DNA from: Armatimonadota bacterium
Lineage (GTDB): Bacteria > Armatimonadota > UBA10988
DNA: 16,210 nucleotides
Assembly: GCA_016235455.1 (NCBI GenBank)
Contig: JACRKZ010000175.1
Span: 1-16,210 of the forward strand
Direction of reading: 5' to 3'
Part shown: piece after piece, positions 1-10,622 of the stretch
Layout of the letters: the number at the start of each line of letters is the position of its first letter
How positions within the stretch are numbered: position 1 is the stretch's first letter
Notes under the pieces: model-generated
The model's input: the letters and a program-made list of their open reading frames with translations, nothing else
Told to the model about the DNA's origin: nothing
Database searches by the model: none
Translations under genes and position numbers: made by a program

Positions 1-1703
1 AACGAATCGGCGGCCTGGGTGGCGTGCTCGGCGGCTTGGCGCGTAGCCTGGCCGAGCTGGTGGACCGTGGTGTTGAGCTGGCCCACCTGCTGCGACTGCG
101 ACTGGGTCTCCGCCACCGCCTCATCGCACCACGCCACCAGCCGCCGCAGGCCATCGATGACCTGGGCCAGGTCGCTGCTGAGCCGTCCGGCGAACTGGCG
201 GCTGTGAGTGGCGTCCGCGCGCGAGCCGTGCAGATGGTCGGCCACCTTGTGCGCCGCGCGCTGCACCTGGCCGGCGAAGTGCGCCATCTGCAGATGGACG
301 TTCTGCTCCATGGTGAGCGACCGGCGGTCGGTGCCTTCGGGTGGCGCGCCGGCCAGCGCCAGGCGCTCGGCTCGCTCGGCCACCTCGGCCACTTGCCGCG
401 CCAGCCGCTCCGCCTCGTCGGCGGCGACGCCGGAGCGCTGCAGGTCCCGGCTCATCTGGTGCATGGCCTCGAACCCGGAGTCCGCGGCCTCGCGCGCCTG
501 CGCCGCCGTGAGCCGGGCCGCGCGCGCCTTCTCAGCGGTCTGCGATGAGACCCGGCCCAGGGCGTGTGCCGAGCCGGTCAGGGCGGTCATGGCGACATTC
601 ACCGTATCGCTGGCGTGCGACAGTTCGCGGCTGGCCGTGGCCATCTGGTAGGACGCGCCGGCGATGGCCTGCGAGGTGCCGACCAGGCTGGCGATGGTCG
701 ATTCGATGGGCTCCGAGACCCGGCCCGACAGCCAGCGGCCGAGGGCCATGGTGGCCGCCATGACCACCAGGCAGATGGCCAGCAACGTGGCCTGAAGCCA
801 GCCGAACGGCGCCATGAGACCATCGATGGGCTGCTCGGTGATGACCACCCAACCGCAGTTCGACTCGTCCGGGCCGGCGCCCACGGGCCACGCCGACACT
901 ACCATCTCTGTCCCGCCGGGGTCGGCGCGGAAGGTGGTCTGCCCATGGCCACGCGCCAGGGCCGGCCGGTCGAGCCCGGACAGCAGCGCCGCCGGCTCCT
1001 TGGTGCTCGGCTGGCCCACCGACGCCAGGAGATGATCGGCGCTGGACAGCACCGCCACACCGCGCACGCTGGCCGGCGGCAGCAGCAACGGCGGCAACTG
1101 CTCGCGGCGGTAGCGCAGCACCAGCACGCCGACCAGTTCGTCGCCCGTGTCGCGCACGACCCGCGCGACACGGTACGTGCCCTCGGCGCCGGTAGCCGGC
1201 TCCTCCGCCGACAGGCTGAAGCCGCGGTCAAAGGTGGCCTTGAGCCAACCAGCCCGTGGGTAGCGCGGCCGCGGCGGCTCGCCCGCGGCCGCCAGCACGA
1301 CCCCGCGCCGGTCCACGGCCCACAGGCTGTCGAGCGACGGCTTGGGTCCATACCGGGCGTGGGTGGCCAGCGCCGCGGTCAACTCGCTCGCCAGCGCGCC
1401 GGAACGTAAACCTGGGCTGACGACGAGATCCGGCCCGCCGTTGTCCGGCACACTGACGGCGGCGGCGGCGCTGCCGAAGGCGCGGCGCAAGTCGGGCAGG
1501 GCGGCCAGCGCCTGTCCGTCGGCCAGCGCGTGACTGACGATCTGCTCGGTCCGAGCCGCCAGTACGGCGGCCGTTTCGCCGGATGCCGCGGCCACGTTGC
1601 GCTCCACGGCCTGGCGGGACACGAGCAGTACTACCAACGCCACTGGCCAGACCGTGACTGCCAGAGCCACCGACAAGAGCAGCACTCGATGGGCCAGCTT
1701 CAT
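1..1703 (-). CDS. Methyl-accepting chemotaxis protein-like receptor (TM1, Cache-like sensor, TM2, MCP coiled coil) with degenerate signalling tip; 3' end runs off the window
   Basis: Absent from the ORF track because no stop lies in the window. Manual translation from ATG 1703 gives MKLAHRVLLLSVALAVTVWPVALVVLLVSRQ (TM1), Cache-like motifs (LWAVDRRGVVLAA; GWVVITEQP), TM2 (LLAICLVVMAATMALG), then MCP-type heptads (SYQMATASRELS...AETQSQSQQVGQLNTTVHQLGQATRQAAEHATQAADS). The + strand ORFs 24-548, 564-1409 and 1530-1712 are its antisense shadows. Confidence 0.85.
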   Translation of the reverse strand, partial: MKLAHRVLLLSVALAVTVWPVALVVLLVSRQAVERNVAAASGETAAVLAARTEQIVSHALADGQALAALPDLRRAFGSAAAAVSVPDNGGPDLVVSPGLRSGALASELTAALATHARYGPKPSLDSLWAVDRRGVVLAAAGEPPRPRYPRAGWLKATFDRGFSLSAEEPATGAEGTYRVARVVRDTGDELVGVLVLRYRREQLPPLLLPPASVRGVAVLSSADHLLASVGQPSTKEPAALLSGLDRPALARGHGQTTFRADPGGTEMVVSAWPVGAGPDESNCGWVVITEQPIDGLMAPFGWLQATLLAICLVVMAATMALGRWLSGRVSEPIESTIASLVGTSQAIAGASYQMATASRELSHASDTVNVAMTALTGSAHALGRVSSQTAEKARAARLTAAQAREAADSGFEAMHQMSRDLQRSGVAADEAERLARQVAEVAERAERLALAGAPPEGTDRRSLTMEQNVHLQMAHFAGQVQRAAHKVADHLHGSRADATHSRQFAGRLSSDLAQVIDGLRRLVAWCDEAVAETQSQSQQVGQLNTTVHQLGQATRQAAEHATQAADS

Positions 1704-1774
1704 GGACTCTAGGGGACTTTCCCGCCGCTTGCAGAGAGCGCCGACAGGGCCATGGAACGTATTGTGTAGAGCGC

Positions 1775-1803
1775 ATTGTAGACGCCGGCGAGGGCGACCG
1801 CAA
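1775..1803 (-). promoter_or_regulatory. Putative sigma70-type promoter of the MCP-like gene
   Basis: Minus strand reads TTGCGG (1803-1798), 17 nt, TACAAT (1780-1775), about 70 nt upstream of ATG 1703. Confidence 0.6.
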
Positions 1804-1819
1804 CCGTTGCCGACAGGAG

Positions 1820-1848
1820 TTGTGCCACCGGCGGGCAGCATGTATACT
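1820..1848 (+). promoter_or_regulatory. Putative sigma70-type promoter of the pilM operon
   Basis: TTGTGC (1820-1825), 17 nt, TATACT (1843-1848); 27 nt upstream of ATG 1876. Confidence 0.6.
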
Positions 1849-1875
1849 GCCCCCGACGAGCAGAGGCAGGTCGTG

Positions 1876-2976
1876 ATGGGCTGGAGGCAGCCGCGCATAG
1901 GTCGCACAACGGGTCCCCTGGGGCTCGATGTCGGCCACCACAGCATCAAGTTGTCGCAGATCGAGCTCGGCCCCGGCGGCCCGCGGCTCGCGGCGCTGGC
2001 CAGTCGGGCAACGCCGCCCGGCGTATTTGATGGCGACGGCTATCTGGTCGATCCCGACAGCCTGGCGGGCGCCCTGCGGGACATGGCCAACGAGTTGGGT
2101 GTCGCCGGCGCTGATGTCGTCGCCGCGCTGTCCACGCCGTCGGCGCACGTGGCGCTGTTGGACGTGCTGGCCGAGCCCGATGGGGATCTGGCCCCGGCCG
2201 CCTGTCAGCAACTTGCCCCGCTGCTCGACTACCCGCTGGATGAAGCCTCCGTGGTGCTGCGGCTGATGCGCACACCGCCGTATAACGCGGTGGAACCGTA
2301 TGCCCCGGCGTACGTCAAGGTACTAGCCTGCGCGATGCCCGCGGCGCTCGTGGTGGCGCTGGAACAGGCCATCGAGTCCGCGGGGCTGGCGCCGTTGGTC
2401 ATTGAGGCCGCGCCGTTGCCCGCGGGCCATCTCCTACTGGGCGATGGCGCCGGCCCGGCGTCGGTGCTGGTGGGCGACCTGGGCGCCACGCAGACGACCT
2501 GGACGCTGTGGCAGGATCTGCTGCCGGTGTTCGTCACCACCTTGCCTCTCGGTGGGCAGGATCTGACCGAAGCCGCGGCTGGGGTACTCGGTGGCGACCC
2601 GGAGGCGGCCGAGGCTTGGAAGCTCAGCGACCCTTGGGACGAGTCCCTGCCCGCCGCCGCGGCGGTGGCGGACCAGTACCTTAAGTCGCTGCTGCAAGCG
2701 ATCAGTGCGCTGGCGCAGCCGGCGGCGGACGGTGCGCATGAGTCGGCGCCACGCTGGCCGATGTCGCTCATCGTGCTGCACGGCGCGGGCGCGTTGCTGC
2801 GTGACCTGGCACCGCGGTTGGCGGAAGCCACGGGTCTGCGGGTGGAGTGGTTGGACGGTTTTGCCCGGCTGGGCATGGGGATCGACGGAAGCCTGCCCAA
2901 CGAGGTCGGGCGATACTTGCCGCAGTGGGCCAACTGCTTGGGTCTGGCCTGGCGACAGTGGGTCGTGGAGGGCTAA
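1876..2976 (+). CDS. pilM: Type IV pilus assembly protein PilM (actin-like/FtsA fold)
   Basis: Motifs LGLDVGHHSIKL, VGDLGATQT, LPLGGQDLTEA, VLHGAGALL..LA..LAEATGLRVE and C-terminal LGLA. Start moved from 1597 to ATG 1876 (GTG 1873 possible), downstream of the promoter and a GAGGCAGG RBS-like stretch. Confidence 0.88.
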   Translation: MGWRQPRIGRTTGPLGLDVGHHSIKLSQIELGPGGPRLAALASRATPPGVFDGDGYLVDPDSLAGALRDMANELGVAGADVVAALSTPSAHVALLDVLAEPDGDLAPAACQQLAPLLDYPLDEASVVLRLMRTPPYNAVEPYAPAYVKVLACAMPAALVVALEQAIESAGLAPLVIEAAPLPAGHLLLGDGAGPASVLVGDLGATQTTWTLWQDLLPVFVTTLPLGGQDLTEAAAGVLGGDPEAAEAWKLSDPWDESLPAAAAVADQYLKSLLQAISALAQPAADGAHESAPRWPMSLIVLHGAGALLRDLAPRLAEATGLRVEWLDGFARLGMGIDGSLPNEVGRYLPQWANCLGLAWRQWVVEG

Positions 2977-3594
2977 GTGCGCGCGCACGCGAACTTCATC
3001 GGCAACCGGGAAGAGCAACGCCGGCGCGAGACACGGATCGCGGGCTGGGCGTTGGCCTTGGCGGTCGCCTTCGGCCTGGCGCCGCTGTTGCTCGTCGGCC
3101 TGATCCGCCAGGGCGCGGCCGAGCGCGCCACGCTGCTCAAAGACATCAACAAGCGCCGTGAGACCGTGCTCAACAACTTGGTCGGCAGTGCTTGGATGGA
3201 GGCCGAGAACAAGCGGCTCGAGCCCGGCCACAAGGTGGTCGTCGCGGCGCACACCAACCTGGCCAAGTGGACCGAGTTGCTCAACGAGGTGCGCGACCGC
3301 CTGCCCGAGGGCGCCTGGCTCACCCAGGTCAGCATCGCCCGCGCCGACTTCGACGCGGCCAAGCCGCTGGTCCCGGGCACCAGCCCACAGACGGTGATTG
3401 TGGTCGGTACCGCCGCCAAAGCCGAAGCGGTGGGTGCCTACCTGGAACAGCTCAATCGGTCGCCGCTGCTGGCTCGCGCCGTGTTGGTGCGCAGCCATCC
3501 CAGCGAGGCCAAACTGGCTACCGCCACCGCGCCTGCCGTGGACTATGAGTTGCGGGCCGAGGTCAAGCAGCCGATCGCGGAGGGCCAGCCATGA
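2977..3594 (+). CDS. pilN: PilN-family pilus assembly protein
   Basis: N-terminal ANFI resembles the PilM-binding INLL motif; single TM, coiled coil, WTELLNEVRDRLPEGAWLTQVSI and VVGTA...VGAYLEQLNRSPLL. GTG directly follows the pilM stop. Confidence 0.88.
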   Translation: MRAHANFIGNREEQRRRETRIAGWALALAVAFGLAPLLLVGLIRQGAAERATLLKDINKRRETVLNNLVGSAWMEAENKRLEPGHKVVVAAHTNLAKWTELLNEVRDRLPEGAWLTQVSIARADFDAAKPLVPGTSPQTVIVVGTAAKAEAVGAYLEQLNRSPLLARAVLVRSHPSEAKLATATAPAVDYELRAEVKQPIAEGQP

Positions 3595-4817
3595 CCTGCT
3601 GGCAACGACGCTACCGGTCCCTGCTCGTGCTCGCCCTGGGCCTGTTCCTGGCCTTGTCCTTGGTCAACCTGGTGCTGCTACGCAGCGCGGTCAGCCGCTT
3701 CCGCAGCGTCACCAAGCGGCTGGTCCAGGAGCGTGCGGCCCAGAAGGAAGAGGATAAGCGCCTCGGCAAGATGGCCGAGCTGCAGGCCAACCACGACACC
3801 ATCTTGCAGGATATCGGCTCCATCGAAGCCACACCCCCACGCCGGCTGTACCAGGCCACGTTGGTGGCGCAACTGGGCCAGTTCGCCGAGCACAGCGCGG
3901 TCACGCTGCTGGGTGTGACGCCCGACAACGGCGGCGCCCCGGTCGAGAAGGGCCTGCCCGAGTTGCCCAAGGATGGACCGTGGCGCTTTGTCGCGGTGTT
4001 CAGCGGGCACTACAACGACGTCGTCAAACTGGTCGACTCGCTCCAGACCTTCCCCAAGGCGGTCGCGGTGCAGTCGGTCAATCTGCGCGTCGACAAGGCC
4101 CTGCGCGACGGCACCATGCGCGCCGAGATCGTGCTTCTGGCGCGCGAGGTGGCCGGCGTGCGCGACCCCGCCACCATGACCACCATCCCCGTACCGCCAC
4201 CGTCCCTGATGGAGCGGTTCGACCACAACACCATTCGCGACTGGCTCAAGAGCCAAGAGCAGCGGCCGCTCGCCGAAGCGCCGGGTCAGCCCGGCCCTGC
4301 GGCGCCCATGCGGCCCGCGCCCAGTCAGCCCGGGCCGAGCAGCATCACGCCAGGAACTCGAGTTCCGCTGGGCGGATCGGCGCAGCCTGGTGGCGCGCCG
4401 CAACCCGGTCGCCTGCCGTTCGCTCCGGGCGCGGCCACCACGGGAGGCGCGGCACCGACCTCGCCGCCGGGCGTGCCGTTTGGCCGCCGGCGGTCACCTG
4501 GCGCAGGTCAGCCGATGCCGCCGCCGGCTGGCTTGCCGCCGGGCTTCGCGCCGGGCGGGCCGTTCGGCGCGCCACCGGCGCCGTCCGGTCACGGTGGGCC
4601 ACCTGGGCCGAGCACGCCGGACATGCTGCCTGGCCTCGGCCAGAGCCTGCTGCCGGACGATATGGCTCCCGCGCGCAGCATGGCGAACGTTGGGGTGGTT
4701 CGGCGGGTATTCAAGATCATGCGCACGGACGGTCTGTTGCCCGGCGGCGGCAAAGCGGTGACCGACGACGGCCGCGTCGCGGCCAACGACATGCCGGCGC
4801 GAGGGAAGACACGATGA
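3591..4817 (+). CDS. pilO: PilO-family protein with a ~200-aa Pro/Gly-rich C-terminal extension
   Basis: TM, coiled coil, LVAQLGQFAEHSAVTL, FSGHYNDVVKLVDSLQTFPKAVAVQSVNL (PilO-like ferredoxin core). ATGA overlap with pilN. Confidence 0.8.
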   Translation: MTCWQRRYRSLLVLALGLFLALSLVNLVLLRSAVSRFRSVTKRLVQERAAQKEEDKRLGKMAELQANHDTILQDIGSIEATPPRRLYQATLVAQLGQFAEHSAVTLLGVTPDNGGAPVEKGLPELPKDGPWRFVAVFSGHYNDVVKLVDSLQTFPKAVAVQSVNLRVDKALRDGTMRAEIVLLAREVAGVRDPATMTTIPVPPPSLMERFDHNTIRDWLKSQEQRPLAEAPGQPGPAAPMRPAPSQPGPSSITPGTRVPLGGSAQPGGAPQPGRLPFAPGAATTGGAAPTSPPGVPFGRRRSPGAGQPMPPPAGLPPGFAPGGPFGAPPAPSGHGGPPGPSTPDMLPGLGQSLLPDDMAPARSMANVGVVRRVFKIMRTDGLLPGGGKAVTDDGRVAANDMPARGKTR

Positions 4818-5707
4818 GCAGCGAGCCCGAAACCACTACCAGTGAGGCCACTCCGGCCACGCCGGTGACCACCGAGCCGCAGCCCTCGCAGCGGCTGGTG
4901 GTGGCGGCGGTGGCTTGCGTCGCCGTCGTCGGCCTCGTATTTCTCGGCTCGGTGGGCGTCTACGCACTGCGACACCTGCGTCCGCACAAGGCGGACACGA
5001 CCGTGGCCATGGCGGCCAAGGCCGTCGACGACGAACCGTCACTGGTCTCCGAGACGCAGACCCAGGACGGTCGCGACCCATTCCTGGCCCAGGGCATCGC
5101 GGCCACGGCGGATACGGCCATCCCGGTGCCGCCCAAGGACCCGACCGGCCCGGCGCCGGTCGTCATTCCGACGCCCTCGGTGGATCCGCCCAAGACCAAT
5201 CCGACGCCGGCCGCCGACCCGCCGAAGCCGACTCCGAGTACCGAAACCAGCAAGCCCGCGGCGCCCAGCAAGCCGGAGAAGCCCAAGGCCCCGAGCCGCG
5301 CCGAGTTGGCCACGCTCGATCCCGCCTCGCCGCCCGATTGGGTGACCGGCCCGGGCGCGGCCGAGGGTTTGGTCCTGATGGGTCTGGTGGCCAGCGGCAA
5401 GCCGCAAGCGGTGTTTGAGTACGAGGGCAAGGTGGTGCGCCGACGCATCGGCGAAGAGGTGGCCGGCATGACCGTCTCGCGCATCGAGCGCGGTCAGGTG
5501 ATGCTGCGCGACGCCAACTCGGGCGGGCCGGTGAAGGCCTTCTGGCTGACGGTGCGCGAGGGCAACCGCCTGGGCGGCACGCGGTCGGGTCCGGTCAAGA
5601 CTGTGACCCCACCGGCGGACAGTACGTCCGAGTCCAGCGGCTCCGGCTCCAGCGGTTCGGAGTCGAGCGGCGACACGAGCGGCGAGGGCAGCAGCGGTGG
5701 TGAGTAA
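4814..5707 (+). CDS. PilP/GspC-like membrane-anchored protein (297 aa) with Pro-rich linker and Ser/Gly/Glu tail
   Basis: ATG 4814 overlaps the pilO stop (ATGA) behind GAGGGAAG. TM (LVVAAVACVAVVGLVFLGSVGVYAL), GRDPF motif, and a PilP/GspC-HR-like domain LVLMGLVASGKPQAVFEYEGKVVRRRIGEEVAGMTVSRIERGQVMLR. Confidence 0.75.
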   Translation: MSSEPETTTSEATPATPVTTEPQPSQRLVVAAVACVAVVGLVFLGSVGVYALRHLRPHKADTTVAMAAKAVDDEPSLVSETQTQDGRDPFLAQGIAATADTAIPVPPKDPTGPAPVVIPTPSVDPPKTNPTPAADPPKPTPSTETSKPAAPSKPEKPKAPSRAELATLDPASPPDWVTGPGAAEGLVLMGLVASGKPQAVFEYEGKVVRRRIGEEVAGMTVSRIERGQVMLRDANSGGPVKAFWLTVREGNRLGGTRSGPVKTVTPPADSTSESSGSGSSGSESSGDTSGEGSSGGE

Positions 5708-5729
5708 GGCAGCAAGTAGAGGACGCGAT

Positions 5730-7478
5730 ATGGCACGGCGATGGTGGATGCTTGGGTTGGCGGCGCTGCTGACACTGCCGACGGCGGTGCCCGGAGCGTG
5801 GGCCGAAGAGGGCGGCGAAAGCAAGCCCAGCGTTGACGTGCCCGACCAGCGGGCGACGGTCAAGCAATGGGCCTGGGCCAAGGACGACAACAACTCGGTT
5901 GTGCGCCTCAGCCTGGTGCTCAACTGGCCCAAGACTGCGGTGCATTCGGAGTGGATCGGCCAGGGCACGTTCGTGGTCACGGTGCCGAACACGGGGCTCA
6001 AGGCCAACGCCGAGCGCAGCATCGTCATCGCTCAGCCGCCCATCGCCGACGTGCTGTTCGGGGTCGGCGCCGAAGCGGCCGACCTGCAGATCCAAGTGCG
6101 CCTGTCCACGCCCAGCAAGTGCCGCGCCTACGTCGTGCCTTCGCAGTACAAGGTGGTGATCGAGGCCGAGTACCCACCGAGCGTGCCGGCCGCGGCCAAG
6201 AACGACGACGAGGAGACCAAGGAGTTCGGCAAGCAGATCATCACCGCCGAGTTCGTTGACACCGACCTGCGGGTCATCGTCGAGGCGCTGGTCAGCCAGA
6301 GCGGCGCCAACATCATGCTGGCGCCCGAGGTGACCGGCACCTACAGCCTGTCGCTCAAGGAAGTCACGCTGATCGACGCGCTGGACAGCCTGTGGGAGGC
6401 GTGGGGCCTGTGTTGGATGAAGCTGCCGGGCAACATTGTCCTGGTCGGCGCCGAGGCTGAACTGGGCAAGCGCGTGGTCGAGGATGGCATCGAGTTGCCC
6501 AGCGGTTGGTCGGTGGCAGACGTGGCTTCCGTGCTGGCCGCCGAGTTCCCCGAGGTGGCGCCGGCACGCGACATGGCCAGCGTCCCCGCCACCGGTCCGC
6601 TGCCCGTGCGCGGCGAACTGCAGTTCGTGGGCAGGGCACGGCGCTGGGTGGCCAAGCTGCCGAGCAAGGCCGAAGGCACTCCGCCGGTGGTGACGCTGCC
6701 GCCGCGCGACAAGCAGACGACGGTCGTCGTGTGGCCGCGGTATCTCTCCTCGGAGACCGCCGAGGCCAAGCTCAAGGAAGTCTATCCACTGCTGACCATC
6801 ACGCGCGAAGTCGAGACCGGCAAGTTGACCCTGTCCGGCAGTCGCGAGCTGGTGAACAGCGCCAAGACCTTTGTGGACAAGCTCGACTTGCTGGAGGTCG
6901 AGACCGTACCGTTCTACCCGCGGTATGCCAAGCTCGACCAGCTCGAGCCCAAGATCAGGGAGAACTACCCGCAGGTGGTGGTGACGGTCGAAGAGAAGCT
7001 GGGCCGCCTGACGCTCAAGGGCCTGGCCGAAGTCGTGGCGGAGGCGCTCAAGTATGCGCAGAGCCTCGACCAGCCCGATCGCGACTCGACCCGTTTCTAC
7101 CCGCGCTACCTCAAGCTGACCGACGCCGAGACGAAGATCAAGGAGATCTTCCCGACGCTGACGGTGCTGTCCGAGGCCGGGCTGGGCTACCTGACGCTGG
7201 TTGGGCCGCGGGACATGGTCGGCGCCGCGCTGCGCTATGTGCAGACTATTGATGTCGTCGTCGACCCGGTGATCGATGAGTACCTGCACTTCCCCGGCAT
7301 GACCGAGGCCAACCTCAAGGGCCTGGTACCCGCCGACGTGACGCTCGAGCGGCAGTCGTCGGGCGCCAAGGGGCTGTACGTCCGGGTGCGAGGCAAGGAG
7401 TCCGCCGTGGCGCCGCTGCGCCGGCTGGCCGCCCAGTTGCAGGAAGACGCGCGCCAGGCACCCAACGGCACCAAGTAA
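5730..7478 (+). CDS. PilQ-position secreted protein with AMIN-like, N0/STN and about five secretin N-domain repeats; no C-terminal secretin domain
   Basis: ATG 5730 with AGAGGA RBS; signal peptide ending AWA-EE; N0 motif IITAEFVDTDLRVIVEALVSQSGANIMLAPEVTGTYSLSLKEVTLIDALD; N-domain repeats with PRY...LTLxG...LD; ends ARQAPNGTK-stop. Confidence 0.8.
   Translation: MARRWWMLGLAALLTLPTAVPGAWAEEGGESKPSVDVPDQRATVKQWAWAKDDNNSVVRLSLVLNWPKTAVHSEWIGQGTFVVTVPNTGLKANAERSIVIAQPPIADVLFGVGAEAADLQIQVRLSTPSKCRAYVVPSQYKVVIEAEYPPSVPAAAKNDDEETKEFGKQIITAEFVDTDLRVIVEALVSQSGANIMLAPEVTGTYSLSLKEVTLIDALDSLWEAWGLCWMKLPGNIVLVGAEAELGKRVVEDGIELPSGWSVADVASVLAAEFPEVAPARDMASVPATGPLPVRGELQFVGRARRWVAKLPSKAEGTPPVVTLPPRDKQTTVVVWPRYLSSETAEAKLKEVYPLLTITREVETGKLTLSGSRELVNSAKTFVDKLDLLEVETVPFYPRYAKLDQLEPKIRENYPQVVVTVEEKLGRLTLKGLAEVVAEALKYAQSLDQPDRDSTRFYPRYLKLTDAETKIKEIFPTLTVLSEAGLGYLTLVGPRDMVGAALRYVQTIDVVVDPVIDEYLHFPGMTEANLKGLVPADVTLERQSSGAKGLYVRVRGKESAVAPLRRLAAQLQEDARQAPNGTK
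6732..7260 (+). repeat. Three tandem ~60-aa secretin N-domain repeats, flanked by two more diverged copies
   Basis: WPRYL (6732), FYPRYA (6912), FYPRYL (7095), spaced 180-183 nt; DNA ttctacccgcggtatgccaagctc versus ttctacccgcgctacctcaagctg. Confidence 0.8.
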
Positions 7479-7511
7479 CAGGCCGCCCGCGCGGCAGGAG
7501 GCAGGGCCCAG

Positions 7512-8840
7512 GTGAATGCTCGACCCGACGATCCGCTGGCGCTGCTCGTTGCGGAGTACCTTCGCACGCGCGACACCGCGGTGCGGGACGAGATTGTGCT
7601 CGCCGCCATCGACCTGGTCGAGCACATCGCGCAGCGCTACCGCTTCGCCGCCGAGCCGGTGGAGGACCTCATCCAGGAAGGCACCATCGGCCTGATCAAC
7701 GCGGTCGAGATGTTCGATGGCAGCCGGGGGGTGAAGTTCACCACTTACGCGTCCCACGCGGTGCAAGGCGCCATCCAGCACTACCTGCGCGACAAGGGCA
7801 AGCTGATCCGCGAGCCGGGCTGGCTACACGATCTCAACCAGAAGATCGGCAAGGCCCGCGGGCGGCTCAACCACACGCTCGGCCGTGAGCCGTCGTCCGC
7901 CGAGTTGGCGGCCGACCTGCAGATGCCCGAGCAGCAGGTGAGCGACGCCCTGGCCACGCGCGGCGTGTTCCGGGTCAGTTCGCTCGAGCAGCCGCAGGGC
8001 GACGAGGGCGACGGTACCTACAGCGTCGTGGAGCACGATGCGGCGCGCGTGGAGCTGCCCGAGAACGCCGAGACCCCCGTGGTGGACCGGCTGGCCATCG
8101 AGGAGGCCCTCGGACGCCTGCGCGCCATGGAGCGGCAGGTCGTGCTCGACTTCTTCTTCAACGACCTCTCCAAGACCGAGATTGCCCGCCGTCTGGGTTA
8201 CTCGTCGAGCCACGTGGCCCATCTGCTGCGGCGCGCGCTCAAGCAGCTCAAGGATGCGTTGATCGTCGATGAGCGCAACCTGGTCCGCCGGCAACTACGC
8301 AGCCTGGAAGGCCAGTTGGCCGACTATGCTCGACGCGTGGAAGAAGAGACGATCCGCGACGACCTGACCGGGCTGTACAACCGACGGTATCTGCTGGACC
8401 GCTTGGATGAGGAGCTGTCACGCTGCCAGCGCTACGGCTTCCTGCTCAGTGTCGTGCTGGTCGATCTCGATGGATTCGAGGCGTATCTGGGCGAGCACGG
8501 TCGCGCCGAGGCGGATCAGGCGCTGATGGCCGTGGCCCGGCTGCTGACAGCGGCCTCGCGTCGCATCGACCGCATCTGCCGCTACGACGAGCGCCGCTTC
8601 CTGCTGCTGCTGCCCAACACCGGTCAACAATCGACGGTGCTGTGTGAGCGCCTCGTCGCCGCCGTCGACGCGCTGGAGCTCGGGCCGGGCGCGGCCGATG
8701 CCGGCCGTATCCGTGCCGTGTGCGGCATCGCTGTCTATCCTCTGGCCGGCGCCGATGCCGACGCGCTCATCGCCGCGGCAAACGACGCGGTGGTTCGGGG
8801 CCGTGCCAGCGGGCAGGGCGTGGTCATTTCGGGTGCGTAG
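7512..8840 (+). CDS. SigB/SigF/SigG-family sigma-70 factor fused to a degenerate GGDEF domain
   Basis: AGGAGG RBS at 7496-7501, GTG start. Region 2 EDLIQEGTIGLINAVEMFDGSRGVKFTTYA..YLRDKG; region 3 LGREPSSAELAADL; region 4 LSKTEIARRLGYSSSHVAHLLRRAL; helical linker; then DDLTGLYNRRY, VVLVDLDGF, RRIDRICRYDERRF, CGIAVYP. Confidence 0.92.
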   Translation: MNARPDDPLALLVAEYLRTRDTAVRDEIVLAAIDLVEHIAQRYRFAAEPVEDLIQEGTIGLINAVEMFDGSRGVKFTTYASHAVQGAIQHYLRDKGKLIREPGWLHDLNQKIGKARGRLNHTLGREPSSAELAADLQMPEQQVSDALATRGVFRVSSLEQPQGDEGDGTYSVVEHDAARVELPENAETPVVDRLAIEEALGRLRAMERQVVLDFFFNDLSKTEIARRLGYSSSHVAHLLRRALKQLKDALIVDERNLVRRQLRSLEGQLADYARRVEEETIRDDLTGLYNRRYLLDRLDEELSRCQRYGFLLSVVLVDLDGFEAYLGEHGRAEADQALMAVARLLTAASRRIDRICRYDERRFLLLLPNTGQQSTVLCERLVAAVDALELGPGAADAGRIRAVCGIAVYPLAGADADALIAAANDAVVRGRASGQGVVISGA

Positions 8841-8909: not shown

Positions 8910-10622
8910 ATGCGACGTTGGTCTGATCTGATGTACCTCGGCTGGTCGTTGGCCTTGGCCGCGCTGGTCGGCGTGTTGTTGTCCGGCGCCTCCGGCGCCT
9001 GGCTCGGCTGGGCGCTGCTGCCGTTGGCGGCTGGCGTCGTGCTGGGCCGCTGCGCCGAGTTGTCGCGGGCGGAGTCCTTCGCCCATGCCGCGTTCGTGGC
9101 TGCTGGCGTGGCCGCCTTCGGCTCGCTCAGCGATGCCAATCCCGGCGTCTGTGCCGTGCTCGCGGCCGGCTCGCTGCTGACCATGGCTGGCCTGGCGCGC
9201 TGGGGCAACCGCGCCACACGCATCTGGGTGGCGGCGATGGTGCTGCTCATCACCCTGGGTGCCGCGATTGCGCTCAACCGCGCCGTGCCCGGCGCCGCCG
9301 GCCGGCTGGCGGCCGAGCCGAGCCGCGATCTGCCCACCTCGGCCCTGGCCGATCAGCCCGAGATGTTCCTGCCGCTCGACCTCGACGACGCGGGTCGGCG
9401 CGTGGCCTTGTGGTCCATCCTCGACTCCGAGCAGACCGACGATGCACAGTCGATCTGGTCGCTGGACGTCAACGACGGCACGCTGCACAAGGTCTTCCAC
9501 GGCTATCCGCTGCCCCTCCTGGAATGGTCGCCAGCCGGCGATCGCTTGGTCTACCCAGCCTCCGAGAAGCCCTGGGATGAGGGCGCCGTGCCGTTCGGCA
9601 TCCATGTCGGAGCCGCCGCCGGCGGCTCGTCCAAGCGGTTGCCAGCCCCGGCTGATGGCGGCTCCTGGATGTACCCGAGTTGGTCCAAGCAGGGCAATCG
9701 GCTGGGCGTGTGGCGCCTGCCCGAAGCTCCGGAGTTCGGCTCCGTCGGTCCCCTCCGCGACCTACCGCGCAGCTTCGTGCTCTCGCCCGATGGCGGCGAG
9801 CCCACCGAGATCGCCGTCAAGGGCTGCCGGCTCTCGCTGCTCTCGGCCTGGGAGGCCGGCGGCGAGGGCGCGCTGATGATGACCGAGCACGGCATCTACT
9901 TGGTGCGGCCCGATGCCAAGCCCAAGCGGCTGGTCGCCGCCGGCGAGGCGCCGCTAGACCCGTTCCCGATGCCGCTGCAGTCCGGCGTGGCGCAGGATGG
10001 CAAGCACATTGCTTACCTCGAGCTGACCTTCAAGGGCGGCGACATCGACCGCATCGACGTCAACGTGATCGACATGAACGGCCGTGGCCGTGGCGGTATC
10101 GCCAACATCGTGCCGCTGGCCATGGGCTGGTCGGCCGATGGCAAGCTGTTCGCCGCGCTCACCCAGAACCGCCGCGGCGAGTTGCTGGTGAACGTGCTGG
10201 ATCCCGAGACGCGCCGCGTCAAGTCACTGCGCACCGGCCTGAAGCGCACCGACGAGGACTTCCCCTGCCGGCTGAGCGTCAGCCGCGATGGCAAGGTCGT
10301 GGCCATCAACGGCCCGCTCGACAAGGGTGCCATGCTGTCCGTGGCTATGGTGGATCTGACCAGCGGTGAGACCAAGCTGCTGCCCAACTGCCACAATCAC
10401 CTGGCCAGCGGCTGGCGACCTGACGGCTGGCTGGTGGTGAGCGACACGCAGACCGTCTCCGCAGTCTCGCCCGCTGGACAGCGCCAACCGATCTTCGTAC
10501 CGAGCGCCGCGGGCCGGTCCGAGGACCTGTGCTCCACCGCCATGCTGGAGACCACCTTCCGCCAGCCCATCGAGCGGCTGCAAGTGGCCGCCGAGATGGC
10601 CGTGCAACTGGCCCGCAAGTAG
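8910..10622 (+). CDS. Multi-pass membrane protein with C-terminal TolB/PD40-like beta-propeller
   Basis: About five hydrophobic helices in the first ~125 aa, then propeller-blade motifs WSPAGDRLVY, PSWSKQGNRL, QDGKHIAY, WSADGKLFA, SRDGKVVA, WRPDGWLV. ATG 8910 follows GGGGAG. Confidence 0.78.
   Translation: MRRWSDLMYLGWSLALAALVGVLLSGASGAWLGWALLPLAAGVVLGRCAELSRAESFAHAAFVAAGVAAFGSLSDANPGVCAVLAAGSLLTMAGLARWGNRATRIWVAAMVLLITLGAAIALNRAVPGAAGRLAAEPSRDLPTSALADQPEMFLPLDLDDAGRRVALWSILDSEQTDDAQSIWSLDVNDGTLHKVFHGYPLPLLEWSPAGDRLVYPASEKPWDEGAVPFGIHVGAAAGGSSKRLPAPADGGSWMYPSWSKQGNRLGVWRLPEAPEFGSVGPLRDLPRSFVLSPDGGEPTEIAVKGCRLSLLSAWEAGGEGALMMTEHGIYLVRPDAKPKRLVAAGEAPLDPFPMPLQSGVAQDGKHIAYLELTFKGGDIDRIDVNVIDMNGRGRGGIANIVPLAMGWSADGKLFAALTQNRRGELLVNVLDPETRRVKSLRTGLKRTDEDFPCRLSVSRDGKVVAINGPLDKGAMLSVAMVDLTSGETKLLPNCHNHLASGWRPDGWLVVSDTQTVSAVSPAGQRQPIFVPSAAGRSEDLCSTAMLETTFRQPIERLQVAAEMAVQLARK

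Follow-up and report, generated by a model that had tools for sequence, protein, structure and literature searches.

PopA of Caulobacter and PelD of Pseudomonas are receptors of cyclic di-GMP (c-di-GMP) built on degenerate GGDEF domains, which bind the messenger at the inhibitory site (I-site), and SigF of cyanobacteria is a group-3 sigma factor reported to drive pilA1. We know of no case in which SigF stands at the end of an operon for the pilus machinery. The closest described control of a sigma factor by c-di-GMP is the RsiG-(c-di-GMP)2-WhiG complex of Streptomyces venezuelae and Rubrobacter radiotolerans, where the messenger acts on the sigma factor via an anti-sigma (PMC7005675, PMC8325347); in Rubrobacter, this RsiG-WhiG switch controls type IV pilus genes (PMC8325347). 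Here we analyse a stretch of 16,210 nucleotides (nt), hereafter the window, which is an entire contig (JACRKZ010000175.1; C163) of an Armatimonadota genome (G000; 6.5 Mb, 185 contigs, G+C content of about 70%). It encodes a sigma factor fused to a GGDEF domain, sigma-GGDEF, which is a credible reader of c-di-GMP and is associated with pili throughout Armatimonadota; literature searches turned up no published description of such a fusion, and a review examined for mentions of sigma factors names none. In the window the fusion gene stands behind a diverged set of genes related to pilMNOPQ, which we mark with a prime (pilM' and so on). Labels such as G001-G006 denote other Armatimonadota genomes, and L numbers denote loci from pooled searches.

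Gene borders were taken from the sequence, codon by codon. The features of the fusion gene are as follows.

7512-8840, plus strand: sigma-GGDEF gene, 442 amino acids, preceded by a 33-nt gap that contains AGGAGG
8559-8570, plus strand: I-site, R350-R-I-D353
8586-8600, plus strand: degenerate motif DERRF at the place of GGDEF

The protein matches Pfam models for Sigma70 regions 2, 3 and 4 and for GGDEF (96.7 bits). The best match of its sigma part is TIGR02980 (SigBFG), at 173.4 bits, below the cut-off of 234 and to that extent short of a firm family placement; the second-best is the NCBIfam 'SigF' model PRK07408. The FliA/WhiG model TIGR02479 scores 110.6 bits, below its cut-off of 189.6, and a true FliA/WhiG is encoded separately on contig C28 of the same genome (232.6 bits).

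At the position of the GGDEF motif the protein reads DERRF, with RRID five residues before it. Among 87 non-redundant sigma-GGDEF orthologues the canonical GG[DE]EF does not occur (0/87), and 77 different five-letter motifs are found at that position. The I-site residues R350 and D353 are present in all 87, and R380, which we take to be the counterpart of a PleD I-site arginine, in 86; R304 is kept in 86 and R307 in 78. Free drift of the active site together with an invariant I-site is the pattern expected of a receptor, not of an enzyme. The first-pass annotation of this DNA had proposed that the GGDEF active site is lost and that the sigma factor senses c-di-GMP. The loss is plain from the motif, and, judging from the pattern of residue conservation, sigma-GGDEF is very likely a c-di-GMP-reading sigma factor.

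An AlphaFold2 (AF2) model made from 39 fused homologues, with a predicted local distance difference test score (pLDDT) of 81, contains regions 2 and 3, a disordered linker (residues 154-188) and region 4, the final helix of which runs unbroken (232-279) into the GGDEF fold. Its fold matches are stalked GGDEF proteins (PadC, WspR, DgcB and PleD) and sigma factors. When residues 232-442 were modelled as two copies with four c-di-GMP molecules, the predicted dimer scored 0.55, vs 0.00 for the best of three controls, with run agreement of at least 43% and partner pLDDT of at least 82; among solved structures, 20 of 30 homodimers and 1 of 23 monomers attain this mark, and the prediction, which used a custom alignment and a ligand, lies outside that calibration of the tool. 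The predicted interface comprises residues 276-282, 300-308, 350-352 and 368-369, and brings the I-site of one copy up to helix alpha-1 of its partner. Since like complexes have been solved (WspR, PleD and DgcB), the pass may reflect likeness and is no proof of binding.

As in RsiG-WhiG, c-di-GMP would act directly at an alternative group-3 sigma factor, and both organisms belong to Terrabacteria; there, however, a separate coiled-coil anti-sigma carrying the motif E(X)3S(X)2R(X)3Q(X)3D binds the nucleotide, whereas here a candidate GGDEF I-site is fused to the sigma factor itself, which is SigB/F/G-like and not FliA/WhiG. A pattern search of the 442-residue protein for the RsiG motif found none. 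With receptors of the PopA/PelD type sigma-GGDEF shares the loss of GG(D/E)EF and the retention of R-x-x-D, but its output module is a complete sigma factor. The stalked cyclases (WspR, 3i5a/3bre; PleD, 2wb4; DgcB, 6ttr; PadC, 5llw) match its fold with E of 1e-10 to 1e-12, stalk included, and resemble it in the predicted dimer with the I-site against the alpha-1 helix of the partner; they are, however, active enzymes in which the I-site serves product inhibition, whereas sigma-GGDEF has no active site to inhibit. Cyanobacterial SigF is likewise a group-3, SigF-like sigma factor tied to pilus genes, but has no GGDEF extension.

Of 41 Armatimonadota genomes, G000 among them, 27 have a single match that spans both the sigma and the GGDEF part. 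The protein database holds 39 fused clusters, the named ones being Fimbriimonadaceae, Armatimonadetes or Armatimonadota, and the named full-length carriers among species-representative genomes are all Armatimonadota or unclassified 'bacterium'. Outside Armatimonadota the sigma part alone was matched (rows L115-L127). As far as these searches reach, the sigma-GGDEF family is Armatimonadota-wide. One irregular member is that of G003 (L021/L049), whose match is split in two (query 1-284 and 329-439) and whose database entry is a sigma-only protein of 330 residues; the gene may be frameshifted or broken.

The neighbourhood of the gene was compared at 79 loci, left from 98 pooled loci (94 after removal of duplicates) when 7 partial ones and 8 with less than 1500 nt of upstream sequence had been set aside; related genomes are not independent, so that counts of loci overstate the number of independent events and describe spread. 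A pilC gene stands directly upstream on the same strand at 38 of these loci, a divergent pilT-pilC pair at two, and a PilQ or PilQ-like gene at four, namely the window, G004, G005 and L154. Where the available sequence suffices, the full order is pilM-N-O-P-Q(secretin)-pilB-pilT-pilC-sigma, confirmed with Pfam in G010 and with tblastn in many others. Judged by gene order, the link of sigma-GGDEF to type IV pilus genes extends over the phylum but is not universal. The arrangement of the window, pilM' to PilQ' followed by sigma, is kept in G004, G005 and L154, and PilQ'-sigma in G003 and L153.

Several observations concern the surroundings of the fusion gene. A membrane protein with GAF and HD-GYP (HD_5) domains, a candidate c-di-GMP phosphodiesterase, is encoded directly after sigma-GGDEF in 5 of the 68 loci that have enough downstream sequence (L017:2789-5359, minus strand; L154:12699-14894, plus strand; also L059, L065 and L091); it is seen in G004 and L154 and not in the window. 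At L127:5975-10723 and L120:6785-11168 (a Thermoleophilia metagenome-assembled genome and 'Candidatus Stramentimicrobium') the order pilB-(pilT)-pilC is followed by a SigB/F/G-like sigma factor of about 250 amino acids without GGDEF. With such a sigma gene placed after pilC outside the phylum, the sigma-pilC link may predate the fusion.

We also considered which promoter sequence sigma-GGDEF might serve. At L025, L113, L054, L053, L029, L060 and L030 a -10 element resembling GCCGATAA, the FliA/WhiG consensus given in section 14 of PMC8325347, lies about 100-150 nt upstream of canonical pilM, and all seven operons end in a sigma-GGDEF gene. This motif is not attributable to sigma-GGDEF: a separate true FliA/WhiG is present in all five genomes tested, and the sole exact TAAA-N15-GCCGATAA in G000 stands before a flagellin gene. 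A one-mismatch site precedes an ordinary chemoreceptor gene (the sites of this type in G000 are C164:12521-12547 and C174:32139-32166), and from the flagellin and chemoreceptor sites it follows that the organism has a classical sigma-28 regulon. The motif is absent before pilM' of the window. The GCCGATAA-like sites hint at a cascade, in which a WhiG-like sigma factor would drive a pilus operon that includes sigma-GGDEF. G025 has a true FliA/WhiG sigma factor and no flagellin match, and about 2.4 kb separate the true FliA/WhiG gene of G000 from another pilB...pilC set (C28:12459-19282), with several prepilin-type genes on the same contig.

The remaining features of the window are listed in order of position.

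3-1703, minus strand: gene for a protein resembling methyl-accepting chemotaxis proteins (MCP-like gene), ATG at 1703, cut by the contig end at base 3, with 567 of its 598 codons in the window
1704-1875: divergent gap of 172 bp between the MCP-like gene and pilM'
1820-1848, plus strand: candidate promoter of the pilM' operon, TTGTGC (1820-1825), 17-nt spacer, TATACT (1843-1848)
1876-2976, plus strand: pilM', 366 amino acids, ATG to TAA
2977-3594, plus strand: pilN', 205 amino acids, GTG start, abutting pilM'
3591-4817, plus strand: pilO'-like gene, 408 amino acids, ATGA overlap with pilN'
4814-5707, plus strand: pilP'-like (GspC-HR-like) gene, 297 amino acids, ATGA overlap with the pilO'-like gene
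5730-7478, plus strand: PilQ' (PilQ-like) gene, 582 amino acids from the ATG at 5730, 22-nt gap upstream, alternative GTG at 5697
8910-10622, plus strand: orf577, N-terminal membrane segments

All of the borders, overlaps and gaps (22 nt, 33 nt and 172 bp) given by the first-pass annotation hold, as does its remark that no terminator is evident, neither the 22-nt nor the 33-nt gap holding a terminator-like site on the plus strand; C163 has no match to a pilin, pilB/T, pilC or pilD, in keeping with its statement that these are missing from the window. The product of orf577 has no match in Pfam or NCBIfam, and the closest Atlas clusters of the region after its membrane segments are TolB/PD40 beta-propeller proteins (score 0.86), which is a lead only; in G001 a homologue of orf577 stands directly after PilQ'.

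PilM', a divergent PilM paralogue, matches the actin-like domain PF11104 (PilM_2) at 52.8 bits, over a Pfam cut-off of 27, and TIGR01175 of NCBIfam at 73 bits, below the cut-off of 133; PilN' matches PF05137 at 35.2 bits (cut-off 22.8). In type IV pilus assembly the N-terminal peptide of PilN binds PilM. Four window-type PilN' proteins (window, L154, L017 and L020) have NFI(G/A) at the N-terminus, which resembles INMIA of a canonical PilN. The PilO'-like protein has a transmembrane segment, a coiled coil and a Pro/Gly-rich tail. Neither it nor the PilP'-like protein passes any curated cut-off in Pfam or NCBIfam: the former reaches 12.4 bits (E 0.17) against PF04350 (PilO), with a cut-off of 22, and the latter 26 bits against GspC_delta, with a cut-off of 150, the G004 orthologue of PilP' matching T2SSC at E 8e-4. 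Both assignments are made from operon position and from tblastn matches to the genes at the same positions in G004, G005 and L154. The frames of the pil' genes are open in the window and in these three relatives, at protein identities of 30-45%.

PilQ' matches Secretin_N (PF03958, 37.1 bits), and TIGR02515 matches its residues 182-259; Secretin (PF00263) has no match at E <= 0.01. In the AF2 model (pLDDT 74.9) a signal peptide is followed by a beta-sandwich similar to B2 of PilQ, an N0 domain, one more alpha/beta domain and four N1-type repeats, with which the protein ends; no secretin barrel is present in the model. The top fold matches are periplasmic parts, of Neisseria PilQ (N0 and B2) and of GspD/XcpQ (N0-N2). 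The absence of a barrel from PilQ' of the window, as first described, is supported by profiles and model alike, but as a defining feature of the family it does not hold. Eight orthologues are 40-53% identical over their first 360 or so residues and variable at the C-terminus. Two of them keep a Secretin domain above the cut-off of 27.5 bits (G002, 65.8; G004, 29.4), that of G005 falls below it (19 bits), and five have none (window, G001, G003, L153 and L154). With Secretin full, weak or absent among orthologues, loss of the barrel is recurrent or patchy and not a fixed design. Metagenome scans returned no relative for the single PilQ' protein and two for the alignment.

Compared with the type IVa machinery (Neisseria PilQ, 4av2, 4ar0 and 4aqz; Myxococcus, 3jc8; GspD/XcpQ), the module shares the order M-N-O-P-Q, the PilM_2 and PilN domains and the B2-like, N0 and N1 folds of the N-terminal part of PilQ and GspD/XcpQ; it differs in the barrel-less PilQ', in PilO' and PilP' that score below the family cut-offs, and in being a fast-evolving paralogue. 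The first-pass annotation had asked for a search of the genome for a second complete pilMNOPQ with pilins and ATPases, and such genes are indeed present: canonical pilMNOPQ with a secretin on C18, pilB-pilT-pilC-pilD on C8, three true secretins outside the window, and 109 N_methyl (prepilin-type, PF07963) matches, mostly in open frames of 200-300 amino acids and none on C163. These 109 matches make up a very large pilin-like family, which could be the regulon of a pilus-linked sigma factor. Each relative within the family has a canonical PilM (PilM_2, 132-145 bits) alongside a window-type copy (27-53 bits). A tree of PilM proteins groups the window-type copies of G000, G004 and G005 as a clade (support 100/99), with stem and tips of 1.57-1.77 changes per site vs a median tip of 0.35; the position of this clade relative to canonical and sigma-linked PilM has support of 49/56, with long branches. 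By tree and profile scores, pilM'N'O'P'Q' of the window is a fast-evolving, long-branched paralogue of the canonical set. Canonical PilM of G000 (C18:75129-77318, minus strand) and its orthologues carry an acidic, low-complexity insertion of about 300 amino acids between profile positions 236 and 245; the frames with the insertion are 580-670 amino acids long, and in G000 the two halves are read in different frames.

The region before pilM' has the same layout in relatives, TTGACC-17-TATACT at L017 and L048 and TTGACG-17-TATAAT at L154, so that a candidate promoter of the housekeeping type is conserved before pilM' in four lineages, the window included. A scan for consensus promoters returned no site; the conserved TATACT was seen when upstream regions were compared, and the scan missed TTGTGC-17-TATACT because its first hexamer matches at 3 of 6 positions. 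A contig from an RNA library of a relative (run X9, record 28) spans 7313-7614 without gaps, across the junction of PilQ' and sigma-GGDEF; as DNA can be present in RNA libraries, it hints only weakly at co-transcription. Another study yielded a contig (run X5, record 13) that matches 7107-7518 with two differences and takes in the end of PilQ' and the 33-nt gap, and the truncation of PilQ' is therefore not an artefact of a single assembly. In all DNA runs the depth of contigs rises sharply at 7620-7760 (1463 in X2). This is a mapping effect and not copy number, since the contigs piling up there are short ones from other organisms, matched through the conserved sigma region 2.

The full-length MCP-like protein (P0121, 598 amino acids) has two transmembrane segments, a periplasmic sensor and an MCP-type coiled coil with a degenerate hairpin tip. 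It is collinear with a true MCP encoded on C11 of G000 (28% identity, E 1e-34) and can be aligned with it over part of the sensor, the second transmembrane segment and the entire signalling coiled coil. The tip consensus of the C11 protein is replaced over equal length by a sequence with two prolines, and no match was found in Pfam or NCBIfam, nor to MCPsignal (PF00015) even at E <= 1. No orthologue is present in any of five relatives (G001-G005), where matches are weak and to ordinary chemoreceptors; the gene is not beside pilM' in G004, G005 and L154; and a homologue search recovered just the protein itself among 8000 scored candidates. This distribution points to a copy of an ordinary chemoreceptor that is specific to one lineage, has a degenerate tip and stands beside pilM' by chance; the gene does not belong to a conserved unit. 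The first-pass annotation had counted it as a component of the system and as one of three proteins that lack their canonical business end. The missing PilQ barrel and GGDEF motif stand, and the MCP tip is degenerate, not deleted; its role as a component is not supported.

The reading that we favour, and consider reasonably probable as a whole, is of an Armatimonadota-wide sigma factor with a dead GGDEF domain, probably sensing c-di-GMP, which here stands behind a diverged pil' duplicate that is still under selection, the MCP-like gene being incidental. In this family a SigB/F/G-like sigma factor is joined, by a helix that extends region 4 without a break, to a GGDEF domain that is catalytically dead and retains just the inhibitory-site pocket. 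c-di-GMP would bind at R350, D353 and R380 and bridge to R304 and R307 on helix alpha-1 of a second copy, so that the stalks and GGDEF parts pair up; the pairing may alter how region 4 engages RNA polymerase or the -35 element, with high c-di-GMP, by analogy with RsiG-WhiG, leaning towards sigma off. The targets are probably pilus-related genes. Comparison of loci places the gene, ancestrally and most often, at the 3' end of pilMNOPQ-pilB-pilT-pilC. The working pilus genes lie elsewhere in the family of the window, with sigma as the last gene of the duplicated pilM'N'O'P'Q' operon; the duplicate would still be selected as an inner-membrane and periplasmic assembly, whose secretin barrel was dispensable and was lost in several lineages, the window included.

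A number of points weigh against this reading, besides the family score of the sigma part and the limits of the dimer prediction and of the locus counts noted above. Binding of c-di-GMP, dimerization, promoter specificity and targets are all things that we infer. No pilus gene adjoins sigma-GGDEF at 35 of the 79 loci, mostly labelled Chthonomonad-. PilQ' and sigma are on different contigs in G002 and G006, and in G001, which belongs to the same genus, the orf577 homologue begins about 60 nt after PilQ' with no sigma gene between, no fused sigma being found in that genome, which is 80% complete. The very long branches of the pil' genes are a sign of decay, their Pfam scores are far below those of the canonical genes, the C-terminus of PilQ' varies among lineages, and L153 has an in-frame TAA inside its single N1 repeat. 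These last points are also the case for regarding the pil' set as a redundant duplicate on its way to loss, with sigma-GGDEF alone functional and the missing barrel and odd chemoreceptor as stages of erosion: branches are 4-5 times the median, scores of PilO', PilP' and PilM' are weak or absent, a full canonical set exists elsewhere in the genome, and the MCP-like protein is an orphan. We nevertheless hold decay to be unlikely. The window, G004, G005 and L154 all keep five intact pil' frames in spite of identities of 30-45%, and unconstrained sequence would not remain open at such distances; the ATGA coupling, ribosome-binding sites, promoter and PilN' motif are conserved; and in a relative about 90% identical, 10 of 13 listed differences in PilQ' fall at third codon positions (binomial 0.0016), a count that covers the listed differences alone, 368 others not being displayed. 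The available pil' orthologues are 30-56% identical. On balance, retained function of the module seems more likely than decay; of the first-pass argument for repurposing over decay, the intact frames, coupling, promoter and motif speak for it, and the long branches, weak scores, variable C-terminus and stop in L153 do not.

More ambitious than either is the proposal that the pil' module with its barrel-less PilQ' is a repurposed envelope-spanning sensor, with sigma-GGDEF as its dedicated output and the tip-less chemoreceptor feeding in. The recurrence of pilM'-PilQ'-sigma and of PilQ'-sigma, the tight gene coupling and conserved promoter, the RNA-library contig across the junction, the GAF-HD-GYP gene after sigma in G004 and L154, and a barrel missing from five of eight PilQ' proteins whose N-terminal 360 residues remain 40-53% identical are all compatible with it. 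We nevertheless think it very unlikely: the chemoreceptor has no orthologue in the five relatives searched and does not adjoin pilM' in G004, G005 and L154, G001 has no sigma gene beside PilQ', the two genes lie on different contigs in G002 and G006, Secretin is kept in G004 and G002, no feature joins the periplasmic proteins to a cytoplasmic sigma factor, and phylum-wide the sigma gene sits after pilC of a complete machine, which ties it to pili in general and not to the pil' module. Just as improbable, to our mind, is the narrower idea of a pore-less envelope sensor or scaffold, made of the barrel-less pil' module, that is co-expressed and coupled with the c-di-GMP-reading sigma factor and forms a family-specific path from envelope to messenger to transcription. 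There is a similarly slim chance that the dead GGDEF domain does not bind c-di-GMP at all and is a dimerization or partner module, for instance a built-in anti-sigma-like domain, or a receptor of another nucleotide. A degenerate GGDEF domain acting in protein interaction is reported for PdeB-HubP (PMC9061725), and the prediction has the stalks paired. Against it, the presence of R-x-x-D in all 87 orthologues and of R380 in 86, next to a catalytic motif that takes 77 forms, is hard to explain without an I-site ligand. What stands of the 'new system' first proposed is thus sigma-GGDEF as a reader and its link to pili across the phylum. A conserved three-part system does not, given the orphan chemoreceptor, the patchy loss of the barrel, the usual position of sigma after pilC, the missing sigma gene at the locus of G001 and the separate contigs of G002 and G006; signalling from a PilMNOP scaffold to a sigma output was conjecture throughout, and these results fall short of establishing a new system of several components.

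Should its GGDEF part bind c-di-GMP, sigma-GGDEF would be the most direct route known from this messenger to transcription initiation, a sigma factor that carries its own receptor and needs no anti-sigma or separate effector. From its place at the ends of pilus operons it may be a master regulator of pili in Armatimonadota, a phylum that has been little studied. To this the window adds a setting specific to one family, in which sigma-GGDEF stands behind a diverged pilMNOPQ duplicate that is losing its secretin barrel, and the PilQ' family, with the secretin domain full, weak or absent, may offer a useful series for the study of a periplasmic part without its pore.

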